Shown piece by piece: positions 1,866-41,699 of a DNA stretch of 64,000 nt (positions are counted from its first letter, which is position 1; each line of letters opens with the position of its first letter). Both the position numbers and the translations under genes were made by a program. This stretch comes from a virus (Duplodnaviria; Caudoviricetes): positions 1-64,000 of IMG/VR virus record IMGVR_UViG_3300031867_000031; one strand, written 5' to 3'. A model generated the notes under the pieces. The model was not told the origin of the DNA and ran no database searches. It saw only the letters and a program-made list of their open reading frames with translations.

Positions 1866-3461
1866 ATGGGTTATGAAGATAATTATCTCATGCATCACGG
1901 AATTAAAGGCATGAAGTGGGGTGTTCGGCGTTTTCGCAATTACGATGGTACTCTAACTAGTGCAGGCAAAGCTCAGCGTAGAGCGCAGAGTTCTGGCGGC
2001 GGCATGTCTTCTAAGACTAAGAAGCGTCTTGCAACCGCTGCAAAAGTTGCTGGTGCTGCTGCAGCTGTTGGCGGCGCGGCATATCTTGCGAATCGCGCTA
2101 GTGGTGGACAGCTTGCTAATAATGTTAAATTTAATGCTCGATATGCTCGCGAGGTTGGTAGAGATGCCATCGACCGTGTGGCTGATACAAAAGCTGGATT
2201 AGCTGTTAGAAAAACTGCATCTACCTTACGAGATAAAGCATCCAATAGTAAAGTCGCTAACCTAGGTAGAACAGCTAAAGCACGTGCTCAGTATGCTATA
2301 GATAGTAATACTAAAATTACAGGCGCTAAACGACGTGCTGGAGAAGCACTTTCGAATGCTAGAACTCGTGTTTCTTCTGCTGCATCCAATGCTAGAGACC
2401 GAGTTTCTTCTGCTGCGTCTAATGCTAGAGACAGAGCTTCTTCTGCTGCATCTACCTTACGAGATAAAGCATCCAATAGTAAAGTCGCTAACCTAGGTAG
2501 AACAGCTAAAGCACGTGCTCAGTATGCTATAGATAGTAATACTAAAATTACAGGTGCTAAACGACGTGCTGGAGAAGCACTTTCGAATGCTAGAGATCGG
2601 CTAGCCAATGCTAGAGATCGTGTTTCTTCTGCTCCATCTAATCTGCGAAATAAACTGTCTAATCGAGCTAGCGTAGCTAAAGCACGTGCTCAGTATGCTA
2701 TAGATAGTAATACTAAAATTACAGGCGCTAAACGACGTGCTGGAGAAGCGCTTTCGAATGTTCGATCTAAAGCGTCAAAAACTTTTAACACTCTTGTTGA
2801 TAGAGGTCAGCAAGAGGTGGATAACAGAGCTGCTGCTAGAAATAGACGAAATGGGACAACTAGCTCCTTATCCAGAGCTGCTCGAGATTTGAATTCTACA
2901 GCAGATGCTCGTATTTCTAGAGCTCGTACGAATGTTAGAAATGCTGTTCGAAATGCTCCCGCTAATGCTAGAAGTGCCGCATCTAATGCTCGAGCAGCAG
3001 CAACTAACGCTATTCGAAATGCTCCAGCCAATGCTAGAAATGCTGCATCTAATGCCAGAGATCGTGTTTCTTCTGCTGCATCTGCTACTAGAAGTAGAGC
3101 TGTCAGTGGTGCCAGTTATTTACGAGACAGAGTTTCTTCTGTTGCGTCTAATGCGCGAACTCGCGCAGCCAATAGCAAACTCGTTACTAAAGCATCCAAT
3201 AGTAAACTTGCTAATCGAGCTAGAGTAGCTAAAGCACATGCTCAGTATGCTATAGATAGTAATACTAGAATTACAGGCGCTAAACGACGTGCTGGAGAAG
3301 CCGCCTCTTCTGCTAGGTCCAAGTTGAGTAATGCCGGCAGAATGGCAAGAAGTACTGCTAAGGCTGGCTATTATAGTACCGCTGGTAAGAGCAAGATACA
3401 AGAGCAGACAAGAACCGCCAAGCGTCGCGCCAATAATCGTCGTATGTATGGTAACGGTTAA
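1866..3461 (+). CDS. HHG-motif cargo protein 1, basic Ala/Arg/Ser/Asn repeat protein
   Basis: YLMHHGIKGMKWGVRRFRNYDGTLT N-terminus; internal repeats. Confidence 0.85.
   Translation: MGYEDNYLMHHGIKGMKWGVRRFRNYDGTLTSAGKAQRRAQSSGGGMSSKTKKRLATAAKVAGAAAAVGGAAYLANRASGGQLANNVKFNARYAREVGRDAIDRVADTKAGLAVRKTASTLRDKASNSKVANLGRTAKARAQYAIDSNTKITGAKRRAGEALSNARTRVSSAASNARDRVSSAASNARDRASSAASTLRDKASNSKVANLGRTAKARAQYAIDSNTKITGAKRRAGEALSNARDRLANARDRVSSAPSNLRNKLSNRASVAKARAQYAIDSNTKITGAKRRAGEALSNVRSKASKTFNTLVDRGQQEVDNRAAARNRRNGTTSSLSRAARDLNSTADARISRARTNVRNAVRNAPANARSAASNARAAATNAIRNAPANARNAASNARDRVSSAASATRSRAVSGASYLRDRVSSVASNARTRAANSKLVTKASNSKLANRARVAKAHAQYAIDSNTRITGAKRRAGEAASSARSKLSNAGRMARSTAKAGYYSTAGKSKIQEQTRTAKRRANNRRMYGNG
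2215..2594 (+). repeat. 149-bp near-perfect direct repeat (2215-2363, 2446-2594) with shorter copies near 2675-2760 and 3225-3300
   Basis: Encodes ...AKARAQYAIDSNTKITGAKRRAGEALSNAR; 231-bp offset. Confidence 0.9.
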
Positions 3462-3482
3462 TTCAAAATGGAAGTGATGCCG

Positions 3483-3947
3483 ATGAATGAACTATACCAT
3501 CATGGTATTAAAGGAATGCATTGGGGAGTTCGTCGGTTTCAGAATCCCGATGGAACATTAACCGATGCTGGAAAGCGACGTCAACAAATTTCGGATAGAC
3601 AAGTTCGTCGAGACATTAAACGACAGCGTAAGTGGAATGCCAAGAATGCTTCTCAGCTTAGTGATAAAGAATTAACAGATCAAATTCTTCGCCTTCAACG
3701 AGAGAAGCAACTTAAAGATCTTACTGCACAGACCATTAGACCTGCTAAGAAAAAAGTTCTTGACTATGTGGATCGATATGCCGGTCAAGCTATAAGTGCT
3801 GTAGTTACTGCTGCTACGGCTGCTTATGTTACCAATGCTATGACTGCTAGGTCGAATAAACGTCTTGCTGAAAAGGGATATCCTGTTAACATTAAGGGTT
3901 GGCATGTTGAAGACGGAACACTTGTTCCGAATACAAATAATAACTAA
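3483..3947 (+). CDS. HHG-motif cargo protein 2
   Basis: MNELYHHGIKGMHWGVRRFQNPDGTLTDAGKRR. Confidence 0.85.
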   Translation: MNELYHHGIKGMHWGVRRFQNPDGTLTDAGKRRQQISDRQVRRDIKRQRKWNAKNASQLSDKELTDQILRLQREKQLKDLTAQTIRPAKKKVLDYVDRYAGQAISAVVTAATAAYVTNAMTARSNKRLAEKGYPVNIKGWHVEDGTLVPNTNNN

Positions 3948-3973
3948 AGTTTGAGAAAGAGGTGCGGCTGTAT

Positions 3974-5719
3974 ATGAGCCTATCTAATACGGCCGTGCCG
4001 AAGTATTACGGCCTATTTCGAGATGCTGTTATTCGAGGAGAGATTCCTGTAAACGAAGAGATTTCTATGGAGATGAATCGTATAGATGATCTTATAGCAA
4101 ATCCCGGAGTTTTTTATGATGATCAAGCTGTTGAAGGTTGGGTTCGTTTTTGTAATAACGAATTAACTTTAACGGATGGCGCTGATTTAAATCTTCTTGA
4201 TACTTTTAAGCTATGGGGCGAACAGGTATTCGGATGGTATTATTTTGTCGAAGGATCTGTTTGGGAGCCGTATGCTGATGGACACGGTGGTCATTATGTG
4301 CGTAAATCTATTAAGAAACGGCTTACCAATAAGCAATTTTTAATAGTAGCTAGAGGTGCTGCCAAGTCGATGTATGCGGCATCTATTCAAGCATATTTTG
4401 CAGCAGTTGATTCAACTACTACGGATCAAATAGTTACAGCTCCTACTATTCGACAAGCAGAAGAAACGCTATCGCCCATTAGAACTGCATTAGCTAGAGC
4501 TAGAGGTCCTCTTTTTAAGTTTCTTACAGAAGGATCTATTAACAATACAACAGGATCTCGAATTAATAGACCAAAACTTGCTTCTACAAAAAAGGGTATA
4601 GAAAATTTCTTAACAAATTCTATCATAGAATCACGACCTATGTCTATTGATAAACTTCAGGGTTCTCGTTGCCGAGTTGCAACAATTGATGAGTGGCTTT
4701 CTGGAGACATCCGAGAAGATGTCATTGGTGCAATTGAACAAGGTGCATCGAAGAATGACGACTATCTTATAATCGCAACTTCTTCAGAAGGTACTGTTCG
4801 AAATAGCGCCGGTGATACAATCAAAATGGAATTGATGTCCATTCTTAAGGGCGAGTATATTAATCCACATGTATCAATCTGGTATTACAAATTAGATGAT
4901 GTTAAAGAAGTTGCCGATCCGGCAATGTGGATGAAAGCTCAGCCCAATATTGGAAAGACTGTAAGCTATGAAGTTTATCAGCTGGATGTAGAACGTGCAG
5001 AAAAGAATCCGTCGACGCGTAACGATATTCTTGCTAAGCGTTTTGGTATTCCAATGGAAGGCTATACGTACTTCTTTACGTATGAAGAAACGCTTCCCCA
5101 TAGACAACACGACTTTTGGTCTATGCCATGTGCGCTTGGTGCAGACCTGTCGCAAGGTGACGATTTTTGTGCTTTTACATTCTTGTTTCCTTTGCGAGAT
5201 GGTGCATTTGGCGTAAAAACTAGATGCTATGTTACCGAAGTTGCTGTTAAGAAATTACCTTTGGCAATGCGGCAAAAGTATGAAGAATTCATAAAAGAAT
5301 GCAGCTTAGTAGTATTAGGCGGAGCAGTTCTTGATATGATGGAAGTGTATCAAGATCTTGATGAATACATAATAAATTCTGATTATGATGTCGTGTGTTT
5401 TGGGTTTGATCCGTATAATGCTAAAGATTTTGTTGCTCGATGGGAAACTGAAAACGGTCCTTATGGAATCGAAAAAGTAATTCAAGGAGCTAGAACTGAA
5501 TCGGTTCCTCTTGGTGATCTAAAACATTTAGCCGAAGAGCGATTGCTATTATTCGATCAAGAATTAATGTCGTTCTGCATGGGAAACTGTATTACATTAG
5601 AAGATACTAATGGTAATAGAAAACTTCTTAAAAAGCGTAATGACAAAAAGATCGATAGCGTTGCGGCTATGATGGATGCTTATGTGGCCTATAAGATACA
5701 TCGTGACATGTTCGAATAG
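3974..5719 (+). CDS. terL: Terminase large subunit
   Basis: Walker A VARGAAKS, Walker B IDEW, nuclease GADLSQGDDF and KIDSVAA motifs. Confidence 0.92.
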   Translation: MSLSNTAVPKYYGLFRDAVIRGEIPVNEEISMEMNRIDDLIANPGVFYDDQAVEGWVRFCNNELTLTDGADLNLLDTFKLWGEQVFGWYYFVEGSVWEPYADGHGGHYVRKSIKKRLTNKQFLIVARGAAKSMYAASIQAYFAAVDSTTTDQIVTAPTIRQAEETLSPIRTALARARGPLFKFLTEGSINNTTGSRINRPKLASTKKGIENFLTNSIIESRPMSIDKLQGSRCRVATIDEWLSGDIREDVIGAIEQGASKNDDYLIIATSSEGTVRNSAGDTIKMELMSILKGEYINPHVSIWYYKLDDVKEVADPAMWMKAQPNIGKTVSYEVYQLDVERAEKNPSTRNDILAKRFGIPMEGYTYFFTYEETLPHRQHDFWSMPCALGADLSQGDDFCAFTFLFPLRDGAFGVKTRCYVTEVAVKKLPLAMRQKYEEFIKECSLVVLGGAVLDMMEVYQDLDEYIINSDYDVVCFGFDPYNAKDFVARWETENGPYGIEKVIQGARTESVPLGDLKHLAEERLLLFDQELMSFCMGNCITLEDTNGNRKLLKKRNDKKIDSVAAMMDAYVAYKIHRDMFE

Positions 5720-5754: not shown

Positions 5755-7176
5755 ATGTCATTAAAAGATCGTTTTGCTAGTGCTTGGAATGCATTTCAAT
5801 CTGAGCCAAAAAGACAAGAAGAGACTACTGAGCATTATACTAATATTAGTTATGGGAATTTTGGCTCATCTAGTTTCTATAGAAATGATCGTCATAGACT
5901 TCGGTTCAATAACGATCGGTCTATTCTTAATACTATTTTTAATAGAATCGCTAATGACGTTGCGTCTGTTCAGATCCAACATATTAGAACGGATAGTAAT
6001 GGACGTTACCTCGAAACTATTAAATCCGGACTAAACGAATGCATGACGTTATCAGCTAATCTCGACCAGACATCTAGAGATTTCTGGTTAGATTTAGTTT
6101 TATCGATGCTTGATGAAGGCGCTGTTGCGGCAGTACCAGTTGACACCGATAGAAATTTAGATCGAAATAATTCATTCGACGTACTTTCCATTAGAACCGG
6201 CCGCATTATTAATTGGGAGCCAAGTTCCGTCAAAATGGAAGTATACAACGAACGTAGCGGGTCTCAAGAGCAGATAACTCTACCAAAAGAAAAAGTTGCT
6301 ATTCTTGAGAACCCATTCTATTCGATAATGAATGAGCCGAATTCTACGCTAAAAAGGCTTGTTTATAAGATGAATTTGCTCGATCAGATCGATGGTCAAA
6401 AAGCTTCTACAAAACTTAACATGTTTATTAAATTGCCATATTCTTTGAAGTCTCCAACTCGTGTAGCACAAGCTGAAGAACGTAGAAAAACTATTGAAGA
6501 TCAATTAGTTAATTCTAAATACGGTATCGCGTATATTGATCAAGCTGAGCAAATTACACCCTTGGGCCGATCTCTTGAGAATGATTTGCCAGCACAGATT
6601 CAAACACTAACTGATCAATTGTATAATCAGATAGGTATTAGCGCAGATGTTTTTAAGGGTACTGCTAATCAAGAGCAGCAGTTAATTTATAATAAAAAAG
6701 TTTTAAAGCCAATATTAGATTTGATAGAGTTGGAGTTTACAAGAAAATTTCTTACTCCAACCGCTAGGACTCAAGGTCAAAAAATAGGTTATTTCATTGA
6801 CGCTTTCGATATGGTTACCCCGACGGAAGTTGGCGAAATGGCTAATTCTTTGAGTCGTAACGAAATTCTATCTGCTAATGAGTTTAGATCTATTCTTGGC
6901 TATAGACCTAACGATTCTGAAAGATCGGACCAGCTTATTAATAAGAATCTGCCGATTAATCAAGTTGATCCAAATGCTAATGCTGAAACTACTCAGCCGA
7001 AATTAGATACCGAATCAATGGCATTACCCGAAGAAGCTGAGGAATATTTATCTCAATCCGACGAAATGGAAAAAGAATCACTAAAACATGCCGAGTATGA
7101 TCCGACAGCTAGGCACAAACGTTATTTAAAGAAACGTGCAAAACTTGGAATAGGTAAAAGTAACAAAAGAAGATAG
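5755..7176 (+). CDS. Portal protein with C-terminal extension
   Basis: Follows terL; 473 aa; HK97-like portal features (LSANEFRSILG...DQL). Confidence 0.88.
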   Translation: MSLKDRFASAWNAFQSEPKRQEETTEHYTNISYGNFGSSSFYRNDRHRLRFNNDRSILNTIFNRIANDVASVQIQHIRTDSNGRYLETIKSGLNECMTLSANLDQTSRDFWLDLVLSMLDEGAVAAVPVDTDRNLDRNNSFDVLSIRTGRIINWEPSSVKMEVYNERSGSQEQITLPKEKVAILENPFYSIMNEPNSTLKRLVYKMNLLDQIDGQKASTKLNMFIKLPYSLKSPTRVAQAEERRKTIEDQLVNSKYGIAYIDQAEQITPLGRSLENDLPAQIQTLTDQLYNQIGISADVFKGTANQEQQLIYNKKVLKPILDLIELEFTRKFLTPTARTQGQKIGYFIDAFDMVTPTEVGEMANSLSRNEILSANEFRSILGYRPNDSERSDQLINKNLPINQVDPNANAETTQPKLDTESMALPEEAEEYLSQSDEMEKESLKHAEYDPTARHKRYLKKRAKLGIGKSNKRR

Positions 7177-7216: not shown

Positions 7217-9286
7217 ATGGATTACGATTTTTGTGGCTATGCCACTAAGAACGATCTGCTTTGTGCAGACGGTCGCGTAATCCGTCACGATGCCTTCAAG
7301 GAGAGTGATGGACAAATTGTGCCTCTTGTTTGGCAACATGTTCATTCTGATCCTAAAAATGTTTTGGGTCATGCGCTTCTTGAGAATCGTGATGATGGCG
7401 TGTATGCTTATGCGACGTTTAATAATACGCCGTCTGGTCAGCATGCAAAAGAGATGGTTAAACATGGTGATATTTCTGCCATGTCCATCTACGCGAATCG
7501 TCTTAAGCAATACGGTACGGATGTCGTTCATGGAATCATTCGTGAGGTAAGCCTCGTTCTTGCTGGCGCAAACCCTGGCGCATATATTGAAAACATTAGT
7601 TTTGCGCATGCTGATGGTACATACACAGATGTTGACGATGAAGCAGTCATTTATTCTGGACCAGATACTATCGACTATATTAGCCATGCAGATGAGGAGG
7701 ACGAAGTGGGAGACGATATTCTAGATCAGCTTTCTGATGAGCAGATCGATGCGATCAATCGAATTATTGATGCAGCAATTGATGGTGCAGTAGACGATCT
7801 CGATGATGAAGATGTTCTGGACGATCTTACGCCAGAGCAGCTTGAGACAATCGGCGACCTTATTGAGGATGCAGTAAGCGAAGCTCTTGAGCATGCCGAT
7901 GACGACGATGACGAGTATTACGACGATGACGACCTTGACGAAGACGACTACGATGAGGATGACTTCGACGAGGATGAAGACGAGGGCGATGACGTCCAGC
8001 ATTCGTATTATGATTACGATGAGTATTATGATTATGATATTCAGCATGCTGATGACGATCCTACTGTCGAGGATGTCTGGAATACTCTCAACGAAGAGCA
8101 AAAGAATTTAGTATATTTTCTGATTGGCCAGGCTAACGAGGATAATGTGGCCGAGCATAGCGCAATCTATGATGGAGGTTTTGACATGAAGCACAACGTT
8201 TTCGACGATGCGTACTATGACGACGAGGATGTTCTTACTCACGATGAGTTCGATGCTATTATGGCGGATGCCTATAATGCGAACTCTCTTCGCGATGTCT
8301 TCCTCGCACATGGTATCACCAATCTTGATGTTCTGTTCCCGGAGGCCAAGCTTGTTACCCCGACTCCTGAGATGATTTCTCGTGATATGGGCTGGGTTGA
8401 TCAGCTTTGGAATGCTATTAAACGCACTCCTTTCGCGCGTATTAAGTCTACTGCTGCTAACATTACCGCTCCTGAGGCTCGTGCAAGGGGTTATGTTAAG
8501 GGTAATCTGAAGGCCGAGGAGGTCATTGTTCTTCTTTCCCGTGAGACTTCCCCGCAGACGGTGTATAAGAAGCAAAAGCTTGATCGCGATGACGTTATCG
8601 ATATTACTGATATTGATGTCATTGCGTGGATGAAGCAGGAAATGCGCGTCATGCTTAATGAGGAGATTTGCCGCGCTATTCTTGTTAGTGATGGCCGTGG
8701 TAGCACGCATGCTGATAAGATTAAGGAAGATAAGATTCGTCCTATTTATCAGGATACTGATGTCTACACTATCCATTACGAGATCACGTATGGCGCCAAT
8801 GATACTGAGGATCAGAAGGCTAGTAAGATTGCTGATGCCGCAGTCCGCGCTCGTAAGGATTACAAGGGTTCCGGTACTCCGTGGCTCTTTGCTTCTAACG
8901 AGGTTATCTCTGATATGATGCTTGCGAAGGACACCATTGGCCGTCGTCTCTATAAGGACGAGGACGAGCTTAAGGCTGCTCTTCGCGTTTCCAAGATTGT
9001 CGAGTGCCCGATTCTCGAGAATGTTACTCGTAATCGTGCCGCTGATGCTACTGCTGGTATTACTGCTGCTACGATGGATCTTAAGGCTCTTATCTTCAAC
9101 CCGATTGATTATACGGTTGGTGCCGATAAGGGTGGCGCGGTTTCGCTCTTTGACGACTTCGATATCGACTACAACCAGATGAAGTATCTGATTGAGACTC
9201 GTATCTCGGGCGCGCTCACTAAGCCGTATAGTGCTATTGCTCTCGAGGTTGAGCATCCTGCTACGACTGGTGGTAATGAGGGTTAA
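7217..9286 (+). CDS. Prohead protease-acidic scaffold-major capsid fusion protein
   Basis: N-terminal HK97-type protease (PLVWQH, MSIYA, EVSLVLAGANP), Asp-rich linker, capsid domain from about GITNLDVLFPEAK. Confidence 0.88.
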   Translation: MDYDFCGYATKNDLLCADGRVIRHDAFKESDGQIVPLVWQHVHSDPKNVLGHALLENRDDGVYAYATFNNTPSGQHAKEMVKHGDISAMSIYANRLKQYGTDVVHGIIREVSLVLAGANPGAYIENISFAHADGTYTDVDDEAVIYSGPDTIDYISHADEEDEVGDDILDQLSDEQIDAINRIIDAAIDGAVDDLDDEDVLDDLTPEQLETIGDLIEDAVSEALEHADDDDDEYYDDDDLDEDDYDEDDFDEDEDEGDDVQHSYYDYDEYYDYDIQHADDDPTVEDVWNTLNEEQKNLVYFLIGQANEDNVAEHSAIYDGGFDMKHNVFDDAYYDDEDVLTHDEFDAIMADAYNANSLRDVFLAHGITNLDVLFPEAKLVTPTPEMISRDMGWVDQLWNAIKRTPFARIKSTAANITAPEARARGYVKGNLKAEEVIVLLSRETSPQTVYKKQKLDRDDVIDITDIDVIAWMKQEMRVMLNEEICRAILVSDGRGSTHADKIKEDKIRPIYQDTDVYTIHYEITYGANDTEDQKASKIADAAVRARKDYKGSGTPWLFASNEVISDMMLAKDTIGRRLYKDEDELKAALRVSKIVECPILENVTRNRAADATAGITAATMDLKALIFNPIDYTVGADKGGAVSLFDDFDIDYNQMKYLIETRISGALTKPYSAIALEVEHPATTGGNEG

Positions 9287-17672: not shown

Positions 17673-20039
17673 ATGGCTGGGCCTACTGAGGGCACTTACG
17701 TCATTGTTTCGGTTGGCGCATCCAAGGCCGTTGACGTGAAAGGTGCTAGCGATAAGAGCGGAACGAATGTTCAGACATGGGACCACACTGGTTCAGACGC
17801 TCAAATTTGGGCGTTTACTAAACCGGACAGCGTCTATTGGCAAATTTATTGCTCGCTTACTGGTAAATGTCTGGACATTCAAAATAGTAAGGTAACTGCT
17901 GGAACAAACGTGCGTCAGTGGAGTGACGACAACTCGAATGACCAGCGATGGAACGTTCAGGCCGATGGAAAGACTTGGACATACAAGGGAACGTCATATT
18001 CGACATATATATTCAAGCCGTCGACAAACTCCAATCTCGCGATGGCGGTTGCCGGAAATTCTACGACACGAGGCGCAAACATTCAGATAGCCAATGTGTC
18101 ATCGTCGAGCAACTTCCAACGATGGATTATGGTACCGGTCGAGGTTTTAACCGAAGCAGGATGCTACAACATCGTTCTTGCGGCTGATCCAAAAATGTGT
18201 GCTGATATTGCCGGAGGTTCGACCGCGAATTCTGCGAGTCTTATTGTAGAAACACTTAATGAAACGTCTGAAAGTCAGATATTTAGAGCGCAGGTTAATT
18301 CTCAGAGTAAACTTGTGAAGCTGATTAATGTTAAGTCCGGAAAAGCTTTGGATATTTACAAGGGTAGCACCAAAGCTGGAACCAACATTATTCAGTACAC
18401 TATTAGCAATAACAACAATCAGAATTGGCTTATCTATCCGAATGGCACCGTATCCATCGATGGGCAGACAACTCCTACGTATGAAGTTCGTGCCCAAATC
18501 GGCAACAATCTTACTATGGATTGTCAGGGCGGTGGAAAAACGGCTAAAACAAAGATCGAAACATGGACAAGGACTAATGGCATTAACCAGAGGTTTGCTT
18601 TTGTTAAAGCCGAACTTTCTGGAAATGATATTCCGCAACCTGGTCAGATTGATCAGCGGTCGTTTAGTCGCGATGGATACGGTGCTGTTTCGGTTAGTGG
18701 GTTGACATTTAGCTCAACCGAGACTGCGTTTCAAGCTCGTTATAAGGTTCGTACATATACTCGAGCAAAGCAGAGCTATACGGATTCTGCTTGGATGAGT
18801 GTTGACGACGATTCGACTGCTCGTTCTGGCTGGGGCGATGCTTGGGCTCCAGCATTTACCGGAACTCCTTCTGGCGGAAAGATTAGTATTCCGTTCAACA
18901 AGAGTTACGAAATCAGTGATAGTGCTCCTTATATCGATCTGATATTTGAGATTCGAGCGTTCCGTAATAGCTATGGCGCATCCAAGATGAAGGCGCATGG
19001 TCCGTCAAGGCAGACCACAATTTCTCTTACTGCTCGACCTGTTCTCACAATGTCCTCTATTGAGATGGTGAATGATTACGGTAACATTGGCCTTAAGAGC
19101 ACGGTCACGAATGCTTTGACGCAGGACTCGATTTTGCTTAGAGGACGTCTGGTTGATTCTACTGGACTGCCTATCAGCGAATGGACCAGTTCCCCAGACA
19201 TGTACACGATCCATTCTCTTGGTGAATATTTGTACAGGATTCCTGCTCCGGGAGAGGAAGTGACGTACGAGTTTACTTTGGTGAATCTTGACGGTACTCT
19301 TATTTCGCAAAAGTTTACTTCTACGGTAAACTATGGCTCTTCCACCGTGACCGTTACTCCAACAATTTCCTATGTTGAGGACGATACCGGCTGTGCATTT
19401 ATTACAAGTAATAAGCATACAAAAGATTATTGCTACATGGAAGTCGATACGCTTGATGGTATTGTTTGTGAGCCATGTCCAGAGATTACTGTTTCTTCTG
19501 GCCGAAAATGGAAGTGTGCACCGCCTTTGAATCGCGACGTTAACATCGTGGTTGTCGGCAATTCCGGCACGTCCTACGGTGTAGTTAAGAAGACCGTTCG
19601 AGTAAATTCTCATTTTTCGATGTGGAATTGGACGGACCCGGTCGCGCTAGACCATTACGCCGAGTGCGCAATTCTTGCTGTTAATGAGGAAAATCCTCCA
19701 CAGCAAACTCGACATTATATCACAGATCAGTTGTATATTAAGCCTATCGGACGTAGATATCCTGTTGGGTTTGCTAGCAATAATATTACCGCCGATATGA
19801 GTATCGATGCCAATGTTCTGGATGATGATGCAGAGTATATTGCTTCGACTCCATTACCAGAGCATGCTCGCGGTATTTATATTCGCAAGATGCTGACTCT
19901 TAGTGGTCAAGGAATTCATCCAGTTTACAGGACACCTTATGGCGATTGGCACACTGTTGCGATTGAAGAAATTGACTTTTCTAAAAAGGCTCTCGGATAT
20001 TCTAATGTAACAGTTAAGCAGTCGGTTGTGGAGGATTAG
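17673..20039 (+). CDS. Distal-tail-like protein with two N-terminal ricin-B lectin domains
   Basis: QxW repeats (AQIW, DQRW, FQRW, NQNW, NQRF), GKCLDI and GKALDI; first gene after tape measure. Confidence 0.7.
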   Translation: MAGPTEGTYVIVSVGASKAVDVKGASDKSGTNVQTWDHTGSDAQIWAFTKPDSVYWQIYCSLTGKCLDIQNSKVTAGTNVRQWSDDNSNDQRWNVQADGKTWTYKGTSYSTYIFKPSTNSNLAMAVAGNSTTRGANIQIANVSSSSNFQRWIMVPVEVLTEAGCYNIVLAADPKMCADIAGGSTANSASLIVETLNETSESQIFRAQVNSQSKLVKLINVKSGKALDIYKGSTKAGTNIIQYTISNNNNQNWLIYPNGTVSIDGQTTPTYEVRAQIGNNLTMDCQGGGKTAKTKIETWTRTNGINQRFAFVKAELSGNDIPQPGQIDQRSFSRDGYGAVSVSGLTFSSTETAFQARYKVRTYTRAKQSYTDSAWMSVDDDSTARSGWGDAWAPAFTGTPSGGKISIPFNKSYEISDSAPYIDLIFEIRAFRNSYGASKMKAHGPSRQTTISLTARPVLTMSSIEMVNDYGNIGLKSTVTNALTQDSILLRGRLVDSTGLPISEWTSSPDMYTIHSLGEYLYRIPAPGEEVTYEFTLVNLDGTLISQKFTSTVNYGSSTVTVTPTISYVEDDTGCAFITSNKHTKDYCYMEVDTLDGIVCEPCPEITVSSGRKWKCAPPLNRDVNIVVVGNSGTSYGVVKKTVRVNSHFSMWNWTDPVALDHYAECAILAVNEENPPQQTRHYITDQLYIKPIGRRYPVGFASNNITADMSIDANVLDDDAEYIASTPLPEHARGIYIRKMLTLSGQGIHPVYRTPYGDWHTVAIEEIDFSKKALGYSNVTVKQSVVED

Positions 20040-20041
20040 TC

Positions 20042-21127
20042 ATGGACTGGACCATCGCAAACTACAGCTATGACATTACCGTCAGTGTCGTTCACCAAAC
20101 CGACTTGGACAATGTACTTGGCTTTCTAGAGGGTGTTCAGAATAGCGGCATAACCATTACTGAGAACTATGAGTCAGATAGTCGTGTTCAGGCGAAGGTA
20201 TCCACATATGTGAAAGAGGGCGAGAGCGACGGATATGTCGACAATGCTCGTCTTCGCATAAGTATAACCATTCCGTCTGAAGACTGGTATGAAGAACTTG
20301 TAACAGGCTATGTCTCTGATATTTCAGAAACCATTGAACACGGTTATATAAATAGGTCTTACACAATCGAAGGAACTATCTGGGGTCTGCTCGATCATAA
20401 GATTAAAGATCCGATTACCATCGGTAAGGGCGCAAAACTGTTAACAATCTGGACCAATCTCATGAAGTCCCAGACTAAAATGCAGTACACAACTCAAGGC
20501 GCCCAAGACCATTCGTTCGGAAGCACAATCCTGTACGAACCTGGTAGCGACTTAAGCACGGTTTTATTCGAGATATCTGAAGGTTATGATCGAATGGACG
20601 TTGACGGACACGGTCGCGTCACTCTAACCAAGTATATCGCGCCATCCAAGCAGACTCCTTCGATTGTCATAGATGCTCATGATTTGTTTGGCTTAACTGT
20701 TGCGCCAATTAACAAAACTTATAAGAAATGGGAATCTCCTGGTCGAGCAATTGTCACGGCAACTATTTCGAAAGAGCAAAACGGTAAAACCACGCAGGAA
20801 GTTATTGCAGGTTCGTATGATGCTCCTGCGACAGACGATACATCAATCGATGTTCGAGGTTATTTGAAGGCTCGTTCTGATTCATATTCAGGAGCTAGCG
20901 AGAATCCTTCAAAATCGGAACTAGATTCCATAGCTAAGCAGAATTGGGAAGATGCCCAAGATAAGGGAAATGAGTGGACAGCGAGCAGTGTATTTGCGGA
21001 TTACCACGCAGGCATGGTTGCGACGTTCATTCCTCAAGGAGCTGATTCGAGTTGTAAAGTTCTGATAAAGAGCGTAACTACAAATCTCTCCGAATTTACG
21101 CAGGAACTTTCGATGAAAGAGGTTTAA
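20042..21127 (+). CDS. Baseplate hub (Tal/gp27-like) protein
   Basis: Position and size; RMDVDGHGRVTL pattern. Confidence 0.55.
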   Translation: MDWTIANYSYDITVSVVHQTDLDNVLGFLEGVQNSGITITENYESDSRVQAKVSTYVKEGESDGYVDNARLRISITIPSEDWYEELVTGYVSDISETIEHGYINRSYTIEGTIWGLLDHKIKDPITIGKGAKLLTIWTNLMKSQTKMQYTTQGAQDHSFGSTILYEPGSDLSTVLFEISEGYDRMDVDGHGRVTLTKYIAPSKQTPSIVIDAHDLFGLTVAPINKTYKKWESPGRAIVTATISKEQNGKTTQEVIAGSYDAPATDDTSIDVRGYLKARSDSYSGASENPSKSELDSIAKQNWEDAQDKGNEWTASSVFADYHAGMVATFIPQGADSSCKVLIKSVTTNLSEFTQELSMKEV

Positions 21128-21133
21128 TCTCTT

Positions 21134-24100
21134 ATGTTGAAATCAGAAGCCGCCGCTTATTTAGCCGGCGTAACTCAGACTGAGGGGGCGGAGGCTTCTG
21201 CTCCTACGAATCTTCACGTGATTACTGGTGAAGTGGGTGAAGCGTCTGCAGACGGCAAAACCCTTGTTAAAATTGATGGCCTCATGTTCTCCGAGAGTGA
21301 TGACCAATTTATTGAGGTTGATGCTCTCGGAGGACTTGAGGAAGGCGATATTGCAACTATTGTTCTGACTGGCGAGCAGGGGCATGCAATGACCCCGCTT
21401 GCTCTTGGTTCGATTGGCTCTGTAGACCGCATTACTGTTCGAATCGCTGCAATTGAGGCTGACTATATTAAAGTTGAGCAACTCGATGCGGCGAAGGCTC
21501 GAATTGGAGAGCTTGAGGCCGACCACGTGTCTGTCGACGACTTTAATGCCGCTACTGGTCGAATCGGCACTCTTGAAACCACTCGAGCTACCATCACAGA
21601 CCTCGAGGCGGCTAAGGCTAGAATTGGAACTCTTGAGGCTGACCATGTCTCTACTGATGACTTGAGCGCGGCTACTGCTAGAATCGGCACGCTTGAGACA
21701 AATACGGCTGACATCGGCACCATTCGCGCCAATTCTGCTAAGGTTCAGAACCTCACGGCTGCTGAGCTCGAGGCGGACCACGCTACTGTCGGGTCGTTGA
21801 GTACCACTTATGCGACTATTGCAAATCTAAATGCCGCAAATGGCCGAATCACGAATCTCGAATCGACCAAGGCCAACATCTCGGACCTTGAGGCCGATTA
21901 CATTACGGCAGACGAGATTGAGGCCACCTACATGCACGCTAACATGTCGAACAGCGACGTGGCGTGGATTGAGAATGGTACCATCAAGAACGGCGCGATT
22001 GTTAGTGCCATGATTAACGATGTCAGCGCAAATAAGCTGACGGCGGGCACTATCAATGGTTCGGTCATCAACGTTACGAACCTCAATGCCGATAACATCA
22101 CGACTGGCACCATCAATGGACAGCGCATCGGTGAGGGTTCGCTCAGTCTTTCAAAATTGGAAGATGATGTCTACACCGAATCTGAAGTTGATGCTAAGTT
22201 AGCAACAATGCAGTCTGAGATTGATGGCGCTATTGAGACTTGGACTGGAACCGCTGTACCTACGCTGAACAACTCTCCTGCGAGTAACTGGACGACTGCT
22301 GCGGTTAGGGATACGCACGTCGGCGACGTATATTTTGTTGTGAATTCTCAGTCGCAGCAGAATGGTTACAACTACCGATTCACAAAGAGTGGTAGTACAT
22401 ATTCTTGGCAGCTAATCAAGGACAGCGACGTAACCAATGCCTTGCAGAGACTTGAGACAGCTGAGGGCAAGATCACTACCTTCGACAGCGATATTTCCAC
22501 ACTCAAGACCGATACGGGCTCGTTAACTACAAGAACCACCAACCTTGAGACCCGCATGTCTGACGCAGAGGATGATATTCTCGATAAGGTTGATACGACG
22601 ACCTTCAACGAGGTCAGCGACACAGTAGACCAGCATTCGCAGACTATCTCTCAGCACACCACGGCAATCGCCAACAAGGCGGATAGTTCAACAGTCACCG
22701 CCGTTACGAACCGCGTCAGCAAGAATGAGCAGGACATCTCTGGCATTAACACCACCATCGGTGAGCTGCAAGAGACGGTCGAGAGCAAGGCAGACGGGTC
22801 GACTGTAACCACCATCAGCAACAAACTCAACACCGTGAGTGACACGGTTGACGGCCACACGCAGACCCTCACTAGCGTCCAGAACACTCTGAGCACCAAG
22901 GCAGACAGCTCCACCGTCAGTACCCTCACCACGAAGGTGAACAACGTCTCCGACACGGTTGATGGTCATACCTCGCAACTCTCAAGCATCACTACCACTC
23001 AGACCACGATGCAGGGCACCCTCGACAAGACGGTTAAATCCAGCATCCAGCTCTGGTACTCCAAGGCCAACACGACCGCGCCGAGCAAGCCTACTTCTCA
23101 GGTTACGAGCACTAGTACGTCTGGCAACGCTTGGCGAATCGTGGTGCCCGCCTACAACTCAAGCTACCCTCACTACTACTATTGCTGGCAGTATGAGTAT
23201 GCGGATGGTACCTATGGCTGGTCCGCGGTCGTGCGCGACATCGCCATGGGAGAGAGCCAGTCCACCGCTAGGACGGCTGATTCCAACGCATCCGCTGCGG
23301 TCACCACAGCCAACACCGCGAACGCTAACGCATCGACGGCCCTGTCCACGGCCAACACTGCCAATACCAACGCGTCGGACGCGAAGACCGCGGCAACCAC
23401 CGCTAGCACGACCGCATCCGAGGCCAAGACCACTGCGGAGACGGCGGCAAGCGACGCAAGCACGGCAAAGACCAACGCGGCGTCTGCCGTGAGCACGGCC
23501 AACTCCGCGAGCACCACGGCCACCAACGCCCAGAGCACGGCGAACGCCAACATCAAATCCAGCGTGCAGCTCTGGTTCACGAAGGCGAACAGCACGGCAC
23601 CGAGCAAGCCAACGTCGGTCGTCAGCACCAGCAACGCGAACACGGCGAACGCTTGGAACCTCGTGGTGCCAGTCTGGAACAGTGGCTACCCGCACTACTT
23701 CTACTGCTACCAGCAGCAGAAGGGCGATGGCAACTACCAGTGGACCGACGTCGTATACGACCGCGCCACCTCAGAGGCCCAGCAGCTCGCAAACACGACC
23801 AGCACGAGCCTCAGCACGCTACAGACGAACTACGCCACGTTCAAACAGACTACCGAGCAGTTCGAGTCAACGGTAGGCTCTAGGCTCACGACAATCGAGA
23901 GCGACATTGACGGTGTTGAGGAACGAGTCTCCGACAACGAGACCTCAATCTCCAACAACGCCTCGGCCATCGCCCTCAAGGCCAACTCCTCAGACGTTTA
24001 CACGAAGAGCACTGTTGACGGCAAGATTACGCAGGAGGTCACAGACCGCGACGCCGCAATCACCGCGAAGGCCAATGAGATTACCTCCACCGTCTCACAG

Positions 24101-28384: not shown

Positions 28385-28387
28385 CAT

Positions 28388-30124: not shown

Positions 30125-30134
30125 GGAGGATATT

Positions 30135-31428: not shown

Positions 31429-31458
31429 ATTAGTTTCCGTCTAATCTGGTGTTGTGAG

Positions 31459-31626
31459 ATGCGGTTTAAACCACTTCCAAAAGACCAATGCCCTGCCTGT
31501 GGATCATATATGTATATTCCGCAAGGGTCCATAAGATCAACTCGCGACGGAGCTTATTTCGATTTGGTTTGTACAAATTGCACATTACGTCTTTCTAGCT
31601 ATAAACCAAAGAAGAAAAAGCGTTAG
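31459..31626 (+). CDS. Small zinc-ribbon protein (not in ORF track)
   Basis: CPACG...CTNC, Lys-rich tail, 55 aa. Confidence 0.55.
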   Translation: MRFKPLPKDQCPACGSYMYIPQGSIRSTRDGAYFDLVCTNCTLRLSSYKPKKKKR

Positions 31627-31644
31627 AGAGGGGTAGATTTGCTG

Positions 31645-31960: not shown

Positions 31961-31969
31961 GAGGTCAAC

Positions 31970-34112: not shown

Positions 34113-35111
34113 ATGGAGTATTTACCCTCCTATAAGGATGATTTATATTTAGCTCACCATGGTATTCTTGGCCAAAAGTGGGGTGTTAGACGATTTCAAA
34201 ACTCAGATGGTTCTTTAACCCGTGCTGGCAGAGCTCGATACGGCAATTCAGAAAATAGTACTAAATCCAATAACAAACTTAAAACTGCTGCAAAAGTTGC
34301 TGGCGCGGCTACGGCTGTTGGTTTAGCCGGAATGGGTGCGTACGCAATATCTAAGAGTGGCATGCCGGTTGGCGGAGTACATAATATTTCTGAATTGCGT
34401 AAACCTGGTTTACCAATTTTAACTCAACGTGACAGTTCCATGGCTACTGCTGCTATAAAAGTTAACCCGAATGCCAAAAGCGGAAATGATGCATATTTGT
34501 TTAATTGTACTCATTGCTCAGTTGCATATGATCTTCGTAGACGAGGTTATGATGTTGAAGCTGGACCAGGCCATGTGCATCTAGAGCGTTTTATGCGAAA
34601 AGCATATGCTGGAGCAGAATACCATACTATTCCGGGTATAAGTTCTGGTGGAGGAGCTGCGGCTAAAGATAGAGAGCTTAGTATTAAAAATCTTCGTACT
34701 AATCTACGAATGCAAAAACAAGCTCAAAAACAAGCCATCGATGATCCCCAAGGTTTTGCTAGAGATCAAAGACGGATGACTGACAATATTCTTAAACAAT
34801 GTGAGGATATGGGTCCTGGAGCTAGAGGAGCTATTAATCTTACTCTTGCTAACGGTATGGGTCATTGTATTGCTTTTGAATGCGACGAAAAAGGTCAGGC
34901 GCATCTTATTGATTCGCAGCTAATTGCTACAACTACTGGAATACTTGGAATGGGTGGTGCGCATGGCACCAGAGGTTCCTCATATGTTGATGATTTTATA
35001 GCTAAAAGCATACTTCCATGTATGCCAGTTAGTGTAACGCGGTATGATAATGCAGAACCGAACATTGAGTTTTTAAAGAAGAAACGAATAGTAGTACCAA
35101 GTGAAGGTTAG
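34113..35111 (+). CDS. HHG-motif cargo protein 3 with papain-fold (Tox-PL-like) toxin domain
   Basis: LAHHGILGQKWGVRR N-terminus; NCTHC..AYDLRRRGYDVEA, GHCIAFE, LIDSQ catalytic-triad pattern. Confidence 0.75.
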   Translation: MEYLPSYKDDLYLAHHGILGQKWGVRRFQNSDGSLTRAGRARYGNSENSTKSNNKLKTAAKVAGAATAVGLAGMGAYAISKSGMPVGGVHNISELRKPGLPILTQRDSSMATAAIKVNPNAKSGNDAYLFNCTHCSVAYDLRRRGYDVEAGPGHVHLERFMRKAYAGAEYHTIPGISSGGGAAAKDRELSIKNLRTNLRMQKQAQKQAIDDPQGFARDQRRMTDNILKQCEDMGPGARGAINLTLANGMGHCIAFECDEKGQAHLIDSQLIATTTGILGMGGAHGTRGSSYVDDFIAKSILPCMPVSVTRYDNAEPNIEFLKKKRIVVPSEG

Positions 35112-35380: not shown

Positions 35381-36022
35381 ATGTATGAAATGAATGATTT
35401 ATTTTTAATGCATCATGGAATCAAGGGTCAGAAATGGGGTGTAAGAAGATTTCAAAATCCTGATGGCTCTTTAACTAAAGCAGGAACTAAAAGATATCGA
35501 CAGGAACGTCGATCATTGAGACGAGATATTCGAAAAATACAAAGATCTAACTATTTAAAAACTGGTAGCATTGACGGCAAATACGCTAGTAAAGTGAATA
35601 AAAAAATAAGCACGGCTCAACGCAATGACAAAGAATACCAGAGACTTAGTAGGAAAGTTACGCAAGCAGAAAACGAAGCTTCAGCTGCTTCAAACTTAAG
35701 AGATAGAGCATCAGAACATAATATGGACATTGCGGAATATGAGTATGATAAAGCATATTCCAGATTAAATACAGCACTTACTGAAAAAGAAGCACGAGGT
35801 AAACAAATAGCAGATCGATATTTAAACGAATATCATAATGCTAAAATTAAAGATCTAGGTTTTAGTGATGTTGAACAAGGTAGAAAATATTTTGAACACT
35901 ATAATTTATTAAACGTTGTTTATACTGATTCGAATGCTGGCTCTAGGAATGCTAATAGAGCAATAGATGCCATACGTGACAGTGCGAAAATAGCCAATGC
36001 ATATCGCAAAGCTCATAGCTAA
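35381..36022 (+). CDS. HHG-motif cargo protein 4
   Basis: FLMHHGIKGQKWGVRRFQNPDGSLTKAG. Confidence 0.85.
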   Translation: MYEMNDLFLMHHGIKGQKWGVRRFQNPDGSLTKAGTKRYRQERRSLRRDIRKIQRSNYLKTGSIDGKYASKVNKKISTAQRNDKEYQRLSRKVTQAENEASAASNLRDRASEHNMDIAEYEYDKAYSRLNTALTEKEARGKQIADRYLNEYHNAKIKDLGFSDVEQGRKYFEHYNLLNVVYTDSNAGSRNANRAIDAIRDSAKIANAYRKAHS

Positions 36023-36038: not shown

Positions 36039-37091
36039 ATGGACGAAACAAGTGATTTATTTTTAATGCATCACGGAATTAAAGGTATGAAGTGGGGAGT
36101 GCGTAGATTCGAGGATGCAAATGGCCATCTTACGCCTGCCGGTAAGCGTCGATATGGTATACAAGATGCTCGCAAATATTATAAAATTAATAGACTTCAG
36201 CGAATGAGTGAGCGAAGCGATAATCCTAGAATAAAGAATTTACTTTCTGGAGAAATTCGTCGAACGCAAACTCGTTCTGATAGAAAACACGCCGATTTAA
36301 ACAAACAAGATATTAATGCCGGTAGAGAAATTGTCGCGAAGCACAGACTTAAATGGGCGGGAGTTAATACTGCTGCTAAAGCCGCATTAACAGCTGCTGG
36401 ATCTGCGTATTTATATTCTAATCCTAATACTAGAGCACTTGCTCCTGTTGCATTAGCTGGTGGAGCGGCATTAACTTATGGCAGTGCTAAAAAAGTGCCA
36501 TATTACTTTATGGAAAATCGTCGCTATAAGCAAGTTAATCCAAAAAATGTTACAACAAAAGGATTGACTAAAAAGCAACAGGCACTCCGTAAAGCTGGAA
36601 AAATTGCATTAGGAGTTGGAGCAACAGCAGCCGTAGCCGGAACAAGCGCATATTTACTTAGTAAAGCTGCTAGAAATAACGCTAATAACAATACACCTAA
36701 AAAAGCGAGTGTTGCTACACAAGCCGTTTATGATGCTAATAAACAGTATACTAAATCTAAAGCACAAGAAGCTGCTAAAGCATCAACCAAAAATGCTGTT
36801 AGAAATGGTGTATCTCAAGCTGGTCGAACTGTTAGAAATGTAGTAGGAAATGCCGCTCGAGCAGGTGTTCGAACTGTTAGAAATGCCGTGGTTAGTCGAG
36901 TTACACGAGATTTCGATCCAGATGATCCTAGTACATATGCTACGGCTATTCGAAATGGTCGAGACATATATAATAATATTAATAGTATTCGAACTAACGG
37001 TGCTCCGGCAGTGATTAGTATGGCGACACAAGCAACAATTGATGCGACTAACGATTTAATTGAGCGTTATAGAAATCGTCGAATGTCTTAG
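36039..37091 (+). CDS. HHG-motif cargo protein 5 with Gly/Ala hydrophobic segments
   Basis: FLMHHGIKGMKWGVRRFEDANGHLTPAG. Confidence 0.85.
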   Translation: MDETSDLFLMHHGIKGMKWGVRRFEDANGHLTPAGKRRYGIQDARKYYKINRLQRMSERSDNPRIKNLLSGEIRRTQTRSDRKHADLNKQDINAGREIVAKHRLKWAGVNTAAKAALTAAGSAYLYSNPNTRALAPVALAGGAALTYGSAKKVPYYFMENRRYKQVNPKNVTTKGLTKKQQALRKAGKIALGVGATAAVAGTSAYLLSKAARNNANNNTPKKASVATQAVYDANKQYTKSKAQEAAKASTKNAVRNGVSQAGRTVRNVVGNAARAGVRTVRNAVVSRVTRDFDPDDPSTYATAIRNGRDIYNNINSIRTNGAPAVISMATQATIDATNDLIERYRNRRMS

Positions 37092-37982: not shown

Positions 37983-38624
37983 ATGGAGCATATTCCTACT
38001 TTCATTGACCAATTAGATGCAGATTATATTTCACACCATGGCATTAAAGGAATGCGTTGGGGTGTAAGAAGATATCAAAATCCTGATGGCACATTAACGG
38101 CTAAAGGTAAACAAAGATATAAAAATACTAAGGTAATGTATAAAGATTTGAAAAAACAAGTACACAAGCAACGTGCTAAAGAACATGGCGGATCTAATAG
38201 ATGGAGGACAGTTACTCCAATAGGCGAACATTCTCGTAAATACATAGATGATATTTCGAAAAAAGAAGAGGCATATCGTAATTCAGATGCCTATAAGAAA
38301 TGGGAAAAAGATTATGATAGTTTTCAAAAAAATTGGAATAGAAAATTTGAAAAAACACCTACTTATGATTCAAAATTAATAGACCAATATAATAAAGAAG
38401 ATCGCGAAATGATTAAAAAACGACCTAGAAAAAATTTCAAAAGTCCCTATGATGGTTTTTATACAGTTACTTCACAAGGTAGAAAATACACTAAACGTTA
38501 TCTTAATGGTGCCGGCAGAGATTTATCTATGGCCTATGTTAGAGATTTGGGCTATTCAGAATCTACAGCTAGTAAAATGGTTGATCAAATGATAAAGTCT
38601 GGACGAACTCTTGGCATGGACTGA
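37983..38624 (+). CDS. HHG-motif cargo protein 6
   Basis: MEHIPTFIDQLDADYISHHGIKGMRWGVRRYQNPDGTLT. Confidence 0.85.
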   Translation: MEHIPTFIDQLDADYISHHGIKGMRWGVRRYQNPDGTLTAKGKQRYKNTKVMYKDLKKQVHKQRAKEHGGSNRWRTVTPIGEHSRKYIDDISKKEEAYRNSDAYKKWEKDYDSFQKNWNRKFEKTPTYDSKLIDQYNKEDREMIKKRPRKNFKSPYDGFYTVTSQGRKYTKRYLNGAGRDLSMAYVRDLGYSESTASKMVDQMIKSGRTLGMD

Positions 38625-39123: not shown

Positions 39124-39849
39124 GTGGAACACCTACCATCATTTATAGATGATCTTCATGTTGATATTAAGCCGTCATTTATTGCGCATTCATTTAGAGA
39201 TGAACATGATGCTAAAATGATGTATGGGTTGCCTAAGGTAAAGAAATTTCCTATGCCTGACGCAAAGCATGTACGATCTGCTATTAGGTTTTTTAATTAC
39301 GCTAAACCATCTCAAGAACAAGAGTTAGCTAATGCTATTCTAGCTCGAATGGATGATTATGGTATCGACCCCGATGATATTAATGTCGGTGATGATAATC
39401 GTTTTAAGAAATATTTACAGCATTCATATTTAGCGCATCATGGCATTAAAGGAATGCATTGGGGTGTGAGAAGGTATGAAAATTATGACGGCACTCTAAC
39501 CGCTGCCGGTAAAAAACGTTATGAAGGATTAGATCGCAAAAGTCAAAAAGCTAAAAAGAAATATTTAAAAATGATGGATAAAGATATGGAAAATCATTTT
39601 TACAATCAGTTAAGTCCGAATGCTAGAAAAGTTTCTGCAATTGGGCGCAATGGACGTGAGATACTTGGACAAGCTTGGGGAGAAGCGTATCGAAAAGGAT
39701 ACGTAACCGATAAAGATCATGCACAAATTAAGAAAGCAGCTAAAGAGACTCGTTCATATATGTCCAAAAAGTATGGCGATTCTGCAATGAAAGCTTTTAC
39801 AAGATCTGGAGTACTTTTTAGAAAAATTGATGATTTTGATACGTTATAG
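39124..39849 (+). CDS. HHG-motif cargo protein 7 (internal motif, extra N-terminal domain)
   Basis: FIAHS...KKFPMPDAKHVRSAIRFF...YLQHSYLAHHGIKGMHWGVRR. Confidence 0.85.
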   Translation: MEHLPSFIDDLHVDIKPSFIAHSFRDEHDAKMMYGLPKVKKFPMPDAKHVRSAIRFFNYAKPSQEQELANAILARMDDYGIDPDDINVGDDNRFKKYLQHSYLAHHGIKGMHWGVRRYENYDGTLTAAGKKRYEGLDRKSQKAKKKYLKMMDKDMENHFYNQLSPNARKVSAIGRNGREILGQAWGEAYRKGYVTDKDHAQIKKAAKETRSYMSKKYGDSAMKAFTRSGVLFRKIDDFDTL

Positions 39850-41071: not shown

Positions 41072-41699
41072 ATGGAGTATCTTCCGACTTTTATTGATCA
41101 ATTAGATGTAGATTATATTTCACATCATGGAATTAAAGGAATGCATTGGGGGTATAAGAAGGTATCAGAATGCTGATGGTTCTTTGACACCTGCTGGAAG
41201 AAAACGGTATGACGAAACAACAAAGCTTATGCGACGTGCTGATTCTTATGAATCTGCTGCTAAACATTTAAATTCGCAAATACATCCTAACAAAAGTAGG
41301 ATAGAACGCGCTAGAATAATGACTCAAGCTGTAAAAGCACAACAAAAAGCGGATCGTATACGCTCAAGATTAGACCCCGATATTGTTTCTAAAATTGAAC
41401 AGGATAGAAAAATTGAATTGAAGAAAAAGCAAGCGGCAAAAGAAAAAGAATGGCATAATAGTCCATCTAGCAGAAGATATCGTTTTATGGATGACGCAAT
41501 GCATGAAGTATTTGGAGCAAATACCAAAAGTGATTATAGGAATCTATATAGAGAAATGAGTAAGGACAAACGTTTTAAAAATTTATTAGATTCTGAAGAT
41601 AATGATGATTACAAAGAAGCAGAAGCGGCTTGGCTTAAAAAGCATGGGTATTGGGAATCATATTTAGATGCTATACATAATGGTTATAAAGACATATAA
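41072..41699 (+). pseudogene. HHG-motif cargo protein 8, frameshifted in a G5 run
   Basis: MEYLPTFIDQLDVDYISHHGIKGMHWG then extra G in 41148-41152; GIRRYQNADGSLTPAG continues in another frame. Confidence 0.75.

Follow-up and report, generated by a model that had tools for sequence, protein, structure and literature searches.

An Apparent Histidine-Centered Prohead-Protease Site Code in a Phage Protease-Capsid Fusion Family and a Related Motif in DUF7211-Tagged Proteins

Introduction

To our knowledge, the cleavage codes of only a handful of prohead proteases are known, with Glu before the cut in T4 and the phiKZ-like phages and a cut between Ala and Ser in the herpesviruses, and every assemblin-fold protease whose specificity we know of uses the same register: a hydrophobic or small residue at P3, a free choice at P2, a defining residue at P1 and, often, a small residue after the cut. 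Here, we analyze the first 64 kb (64,000 nucleotides [nt]; hereafter, the window) of the 82,331-base-pair (bp) IMG/VR phage record IMGVR_UViG_3300031867_000031 (Duplodnaviria, Caudoviricetes; estimated completeness 99%), in which a gene on the + strand (7217..9286) encodes a 689-residue fusion of a protease, an acidic scaffold-like linker and a major capsid protein, and in which the linker histidines recur in one sequence context. This context appears to represent a prohead-protease site code that has an unusual defining residue and extends to tagged internal proteins, in a family whose cleavage sites appear to be undescribed.

The T4 protease gp21 is alike in being an assemblin-fold serine protease that acts on a P3-hydrophobic, P1-defining motif, (L/I)-x-E, found both in the scaffold and in the leaders of internal proteins; it destroys itself, as we propose for the protease described here. 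P1 is Glu in T4 and, putatively, His here; protease, scaffold and capsid form one chain here; and a targeting sequence precedes the cut in T4, whereas a conserved cargo module follows the putative cut here. The phiKZ and SPN3US proteases (gp175 and gp245; S/A/G-x-E) process many head proteins at a motif, make extra propeptide cuts for clearance and cleave themselves near the C terminus, and these phages package a virion RNA polymerase; for SPN3US, phiKZ and T4 together, cleavage after Glu at A/S/L-x-E has been described (PMC5694885). The present phage differs from phiKZ and SPN3US in the P1 residue, in being a siphophage with an 82-kb genome and a single-chain RNA polymerase, and in its fusion gene; its RNA polymerase gene, at 78356 of the record, carries a variant (LMH-Y) of the cargo tag treated below.

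The best structural match is herpesvirus assemblin (UL26/UL26.5), in which the protease is fused to the scaffold and the sites, V/L/I-x-A-S with the cut between Ala and Ser, combine a hydrophobic P3, a defining P1 and Ser at P1'; P1 is thus Ala there and, putatively, His here. UL26.5 is a nested in-frame gene for a protease-less product and finds a parallel in an internal Shine-Dalgarno (SD) sequence and ATG at Met324 of the fusion gene, with the difference that the nested product here would be the capsid protein itself. HK97 (gp4 and the gp5 delta domain) shares an S78 protease and a scaffold that is fused N-terminally to the HK97-fold capsid and then degraded; its protease is a separate gene, its maturation cut falls after Lys103, and we know of no His motif in it. 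Effantin et al. are said to have described, in 2010, a "tripartite capsid gene" in Gifsy-2, with protease, scaffold and capsid in one frame and a suspected internal start. The Gifsy-2 protease is of the ClpP type (S14/S49), compared with S78/assemblin here, and the sequences are unrelated, so that the likeness is one of architecture only.

Protease-capsid fusions of the present kind have been remarked on as an "unusual feature" (PMC5513430). The annotation "major capsid and protease fusion protein" stands on 244 phage records, and carriers of the fusion include Arthrobacter, Gordonia, Streptomyces and Rhodococcus phages, Lactococcus phage 1706 and Faecalibacterium phage FP_oengus. The fusion proteins of the actinobacteriophages (Arthrobacter clusters AM/AU, Gordonia, Streptomyces), of 1706 and of FP_oengus belong to the same family as the protein studied here, with 36-55% identity over the full length, and the papers on these phages that were readable describe no cleavage sites, motif or DUF7211 link.

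Results and Discussion

A His-Centered Motif in the Linker

The linker occupies residues 126-365 of the fusion protein (7592..8311), is 26% Asp and contains nine His, at residues 131, 157, 226, 262, 277, 314, 326, 342 and 365. An earlier, sequence-only reading had listed their contexts as hydrophobic-x-His-small, and the translation bears out the list exactly. Two of the sites lie at the domain borders: FAH-A (His131; 7601..7612), between protease and linker, and LAH-G (His365; 8303..8314), between linker and capsid domain, which is followed by GITNLDVLFPEAK. Between them lie ISH-A (His157; 7679..7690), LEH-A (His226; 7886..7897), VQH-S (His262; 7994..8005), IQH-A (His277; 8039..8050), AEH-S (His314; 8150..8161), MKH-N (His326) and LTH-D (His342; 8234..8245). 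Phe, Ile, Leu, Val or Met stands at -2 for eight of the nine His (p = 5.5e-5 on shuffling of the linker residues), and the combination of a hydrophobic residue at -2 with Ala, Ser or Gly at +1, present at six of the nine, was reached in 0 of 200,000 linker shuffles. The fusion protein carries nine motifs, against at most three in every other protein of the genome, even those with 27-30 His.

An exhaustive HMMER search gave 1,614 relatives, of which the best 150 cluster representatives were analyzed, the enrichment figures covering 149 homologues (<=50% identity) and conservation being counted over 151 sequences. Both border sites are fixed: 151/151 sequences have His131, within [ILFMV]-[AQE]-H-[SGA]-D, and at least 149/151 have His365, within [LIM]-[AQE]-H-G-I. 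Two apparent exceptions among the border His, P0115 and P0131, proved to be misalignments, the motifs IMHSG and ELQHD being present nearby. Inside the linker, His157 (124/151; context L/I-x-H-A/S-D), His342 (134/151) and His262 (83/151) are widely kept, His226 and His277 are lineage specific, and homologues have Val, Ile or Ala at -2 of His314.

Beyond the border sites, the family linkers contain 721 further His, 85% of which have F, I, L, V or M at -2 (background 21%), 54% Ser or Ala at +1 (background 16%) and 38% Asp at +2 (background 13%). The effect is specific to His: a hydrophobic residue precedes His by two positions with a probability of 0.85, compared with 0.11-0.29 for each other residue type, and His is enriched 7.7-fold over background in the slot [FILVM]-x-?-[SAG], where all other residues stay at 1.4-fold or less. 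The retained capsid domain serves as a negative control; there, a hydrophobic residue stands at -2 of 27% of the His (background 28%), the full motif is carried by 6% (5.4% expected), and His is three times rarer. The sites turn over rapidly, the motif His being spread over 113 alignment columns with two to eleven internal sites per protein, and even among His present in one sequence only, 58% have a hydrophobic residue at -2 (21% expected) and 36% the full motif (4.5% expected). The median piece between linker sites is 27 residues long. The comparison with shuffled sequence and with homologues that the sequence-only reading had called for was run, and the enrichment held in both. Judged from these alignments, this is a short, His-centered motif under selection, confined to the disposable parts of the precursor and fixed at both domain borders.

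The Protease and Capsid Domains

Residues 18-125 match PF04586 (Peptidase_S78; 28.8 bits against a cut-off of 21), the full-length protein matches phrog_3270 (E = 5e-202), and an AlphaFold2 (AF2) model of residues 1-148 has a predicted local distance difference test score (pLDDT) of 90.9 overall and ~98 in the protease domain (residues 1-125; 7217..7591). Foldseek assigns this model a probability of 1.0 to the proteases of Epstein-Barr virus (EBV), human cytomegalovirus (HCMV) and Kaposi's sarcoma-associated herpesvirus (KSHV) and of 0.94 to T4 gp21 (5jbl); as modeled, the domain is of the herpesvirus assemblin fold (S78). His41 and Ser90 are invariant in fusion-family alignments of 151 and 102 sequences, and the third catalytic residue has two candidates, His105 (137/151) and His43 (135/151). 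Three invariant acidic residues, Asp18, Asp85 and Glu110, are candidates for lining the S1 pocket. At the other end of the chain, a model of residues 324-689 matches the gene transfer agent (GTA) capsid, HK97 (1ohg) and actinophage capsids (E ~1e-8 to 1e-9), consistent with an HK97-fold capsid domain at residues 366-689 (8312..9283); homologues of the fusion protein carry PF05065. In this model, two short helices stand ahead of the capsid N-arm, opened by His342 and closed by His365. The Protein Data Bank (PDB) holds no solved structure of a sequence relative of the fusion protein. With Pfam S78, PHROG 3270 and two fold matches in agreement, the open reading frame (ORF) encodes protease, acidic linker and capsid in a single chain.

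A Putative Cleavage Site

The linker is disposable and is joined to its own protease, and a motif placed at each of its borders looks like a maturation site. Because its hydrophobic P3, variable P2, His at P1 and small P1' match the assemblin-fold register, cleavage after His is the best reading: the linker motif is most likely a protease cleavage site with the scissile bond after His, which would be unusual. By comparison across the family, a His-centered maturation motif is as good as established. The sequence-only proposal that the protease cleaves after His thus gains the invariant borders, a His-specific 4-fold enrichment, the capsid control, the turnover of sites and the register; the motif, its conservation and His-specificity, its confinement to the removed regions, the two folds and the co-occurrence of tag and fusion are what the data show, and the cleavage role, the bond after His and the packaging and processing of cargo are what we infer.

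The overall explanation that we find best, and reasonably probable, is the following. The primary product would be a head polyprotein in which an S78 assemblin-fold serine protease is joined through an acidic scaffold-like linker to an HK97-fold capsid. Once the prohead has assembled, this protease would act at [L/I/V/M/F]-x-H-[S/A/G](-D) sites and cut behind the His, the cut at His131 freeing the protease and that at His365 freeing the capsid domain; a cut after His365 would make Gly366 the N terminus of the mature capsid. Two to eleven further cuts would chop the linker into pieces (median 27 residues) able to leave the shell, and proteins carrying a DUF7211 tag, probably head-internal or ejected, would be trimmed or docked by the same protease. 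A wider version of this proposal, in which a siphophage lineage with a P1-His assemblin-fold protease uses one L-x-H code for capsid release, for shredding of scaffold and protease and for the addressing, maturation and ejection of DUF7211 cargo, with a nested start setting the ratio of protease to capsid, we put forward only tentatively.

Stand-alone capsid genes were considered as markers of the mature N terminus but yielded no independent support for the position of the cut, as the examples examined either begin at the internal Met324 or are truncated by contig ends. One of them, P0172 (L084 4077-5001, on a 58-kb contig), owes its separate state to nothing more than a stretch of N in the assembly of the repetitive acidic linker, so the short homologues of the fusion protein in protein databases (~2,257) are often artifacts.

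The DUF7211 Tag and Its Link to the Fusion Gene

The second place where L-x-H recurs is a short tag at or near the N terminus of several proteins of the phage. The tag corresponds to Pfam PF23847 (DUF7211), matched by six of seven proteins at 33-46 bits and by the seventh at 26.3 (cut-off 27), and a genome search with DUF7211 gave eight matches above the cut-off. Two of the tags lie in the head module, on a 531-aa (amino acid) basic repeat protein (LMH-H; tag 1878..1931) and on a 159-aa protein (LYH-H; 3486..3536); the others are on a papain-fold (Gln_amidase) protein (LAH-H; 34140..34193), at 35396..35449 (LMH-H), 36045..36107 (LMH-H) and 38022..38078 (ISH-H), at an internal position in the protein encoded at 39124-39849 (LAH-H at His105; 39424..39480), and on a truncated or frameshifted copy found in the genome search (41111..41161). 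All are on the + strand, and the L/I-x-H-H motifs lie at 1893, 3498, 34155, 35411, 36069, 38034, 39436 and 41123. Past the window, a 385-aa protein (64527-65684) bears a ninth tag (start DISH-HGIKGQQWG) and a 920-aa RNA polymerase-like protein (78356-81118) starts with a tag variant, YLMH-YG ... PWG, so the phage has more of the tag than the eight window copies.

To survey the tag more widely, 79 viral loci were fetched by the downstream part of the tag only, with no requirement for the His, giving 218 unique instances. The residue before the tag is His in 100% of them, with Leu or Ile two residues earlier in 99%. The start codon of a tagged gene is never closer than four residues before the tag His, and some ORFs contain a tandem pair of tags. 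A fusion gene lies within 10 kb downstream of the tag in 56 of the 79 loci and elsewhere in the record for 3 of 5 others, the rest being fragments. When a 30-residue tag query was run against 50,697 phage records, 186 were matched, all from host genera with the fusion, and tag and fusion give equal counts in Arthrobacter (95), Gordonia (55) and Rhodococcus (4). Tag and head protease are thus inherited together in phages of Actinobacteria and Firmicutes, with a contribution from shared descent, as the surveyed tag loci are relatives.

In Arthrobacter phage Niktson (L003 1723-4675), six tagged genes, one an acetyltransferase, surround terminase and portal; in FP_oengus, a tagged gene adjoins the portal; and orf7 of Lactococcus phage 1706, which has two tags, is annotated "structural protein," its presence in the virion resting on that annotation. 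The profile phrog_35934 ("virion structural protein") weakly matches tagged proteins. The tagged proteins, among them a papain-fold toxin-like protein, basic proteins and the RNA polymerase, are probably head-internal or ejected. No paper mentioning DUF7211 was found in the literature search, and Pfam gives the family no assigned function; the link of DUF7211 to one head-protease family, together with the invariant L-x-H, is, as far as these comparisons reach, new here.

Two further observations concern the distribution of the tag. Runs of four to six tagged genes, all annotated as hypothetical, lie between terminase and portal in actinobacteriophages, and the tagged acetyltransferase recurs in Gordonia and Streptomyces phages. 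The protein encoded at 39124-39849 has an N-terminal domain of ~75 residues (a weak DUF6582 match) flanked by FIAH-S (His22) and LQH-S (His100), with the tag starting at residue 101; from this layout, it looks like a two-part polyprotein.

Alternative Readings of the Motif

Several points weigh against the favored explanation. Full-text searching of the literature for cleavage sites of the fusion family, for DUF7211 and for phage proteases with P1 His returned no paper, and no report of a mapped mature N terminus or in vitro cleavage was found for any family member. In the 218 tag instances, the residue after the tag His is not small but His (70%), Tyr, Trp or Phe. In the AF2 model, residues 128-135, around the first border site, lie undocked from the protease, with a pLDDT of ~55 there and low confidence beyond residue 130. 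The conserved His52, His83 and His105 of the folded protease share a V/L-x-H-G/A context, and such a context can therefore also be structural; these residues may be auto-digestion sites or simply structural. Finally, a site seen in the portal tail of this phage (see below) is absent from the portal tails of 65/67 relatives, most of which have no His there at all.

The residue at +1 bears most directly on the tags. The sequence-only reading had placed the same site before each cargo tag, with a small residue after the His throughout. LMH-H, LYH-H, LAH-H and ISH-H are all present, and the Leu/Ile and His are shared with the linker; "small" describes the linker (Ser, Ala or Gly) but not the tags. 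Motif sharing is in this respect only partly T4-like, P3 Leu/Ile and the His being common to linker and cargo, while P1' is Ser, Ala or Gly in the linker and His, Tyr, Trp or Phe in the cargo. The two are accordingly not strictly the same code, which makes cutting of the tags less certain and a docking element possible: the tag may be a substrate with cleavage kinetics of its own, or it may instead serve as a pseudo-substrate for docking. The further proposal that the code links the cargo family to head maturation draws support from the exclusive co-occurrence of tag and fusion and from the shared P3 Leu/Ile and His, and is weakened by the same difference at P1'.

It is conceivable, though on balance unlikely, that the linker sites are cleaved while the L-x-H of DUF7211 belongs to an uncut, folded or binding tag, with the cargo keeping its short leader. 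Such a tag could be a pseudo-substrate that docks cargo on the protease or the scaffold, or a DNA- or portal-binding element. The aromatic or His residue at +1 and an invariant Gly at +2 are unlike the linker sites, some leaders have a length of just 4-6 residues, so that removal would change little, and the tag His equals the G, G, W and G within the tag in its invariance. In the other direction, Leu/Ile at -3 and His at -1 of the tag match P3 and P1 of the linker sites, the tandem tags and the protein at 39124 (FIAH-S, LQH-S, LAH-H) resemble polyprotein joints, and the gene start never falls at or after the tag His.

That hydrophobic-x-H-S/A-D is a non-proteolytic motif, for metal binding or for contacts with the capsid interior, with the protease cutting elsewhere, we consider improbable. 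Pairs of His and Asp could bind metal, the motif is multivalent, and the conserved His of the folded protease stand in the same context. The sites nevertheless fall exactly at both domain borders and are invariant there; the linker has no other recurrent motif that could supply the cuts, every other residue in the P1 slot staying at or below 1.4-fold over background; the 27-residue spacing and rapid turnover fit clearance cuts; and known assemblin-fold proteases read their sites in the same register.

There is similarly little to recommend the view that the sites are real but that the bond is not the one after His (for example, after Ser/Ala), or that a host protease makes the cut, a reading that we judge distinctly improbable. 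The register is not fixable from the sequence alone, and heads of the staphylococcal 80alpha type, processed by a host protease, provide a precedent. Here, the substrate is fused to an intact protease that the phage itself encodes and in which His41 and Ser90 are invariant; in the cargo, the +1 residue varies and the His does not, which speaks for His as the specificity residue; and known relatives have their defining residue at P1. A chance or compositional effect of the acidic, low-complexity linker, suggested by its 26% Asp (which makes Asp at +1 or +2 cheap) and by the inclusion of Asp and Asn in the earlier "small" class, is effectively refuted by the shuffling of the query alone (p = 5.5e-5) and by the family-wide, His-specific enrichment with the capsid domain as negative control.

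A Probable Nested Start at Met324

One of the nine linker His is better explained in another way. His326 (MKH-N), which the sequence-only reading had counted among the cleavage sites, does have the context, but a conserved start codon at Met324 probably accounts for this, and no cleavage site is needed to explain it. In the window, GGAGG (8174-8178) is followed, after a 7-nt spacer, by the ATG of Met324 (8186-8188; + strand), a probable nested start (8174..8188), and Met324 (MKHNVF) is kept in 124/151 representatives. GGAGG lies at -16..-5 in 22 of 32 viral fusion ORFs with the Met324 motif, compared with 1.3% at other in-frame linker positions, and an SD-like 4-mer lies there in 31 of 32, compared with 16%; the residues encoded by the internal SD region differ between fusion ORFs. 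Judging from this pattern, a 366-aa capsid precursor (residues 324-689) may be made from the nested start, lacking the protease but retaining LTH342 and LAH365. Such a start would set the ratio of protease to capsid.

The Portal Site

The portal gene (5755..7176, + strand) contains the LKH-A that had been predicted as a further site of the code (7081-7092; residues 443-446), joining an acidic tail to a 28-aa basic remnant. The site is there as predicted but is not conserved in the family, being confined to two close relatives. In a close relative (L004, 4933-6753), the portal runs through ILEH-S into a module of ~170 residues, "YDP..H..YL," and in G003, whose fusion protein is 83% identical, this module is a separate ORF that starts MAYASKYYDP; the present phage has only 28 basic C-terminal residues of it left (portal end, 7081-7176). 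With the module fused in the one and separate in the other, the portal site thus lies at a gene-fusion joint. A site at such a joint fits a processing site, as a feature of the clade, not of the family. As a separate ORF of 280 aa, the module lies at L083:9189-10028.

Implications and Other Features of the Window

If the proposed code is real, a His-specific prohead protease would represent a rare protease specificity, and the mature capsid N termini and scaffold fragments of several hundred sequenced phages would become predictable. DUF7211 would be an address or maturation label of effectors that are packaged in the head and injected into the host, including the RNA polymerase of this phage, and the ejected set would comprise toxin-like enzymes, acetyltransferases, DNA-coating proteins and a virion RNA polymerase. 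With the tag, ejected anti-host proteins could then be sought by sequence, and foreign proteins could be loaded into capsids. The lineage concerned would span hundreds of isolated actinobacteriophages, the Lactococcus 1706 group, Faecalibacterium phages and many gut metagenome phages.

All genes of the window are on the + strand. Upstream of the portal and fusion genes, the head module comprises the two tagged genes at 1866-3461 (531 aa) and 3468-3947 (159 aa) and the large terminase (3962-5719). Farther downstream, the tail-fiber region (20000-32000), including a 2416-aa ORF (21134-28384), has a G+C content of ~50%, compared with 35-40% elsewhere in the phage.

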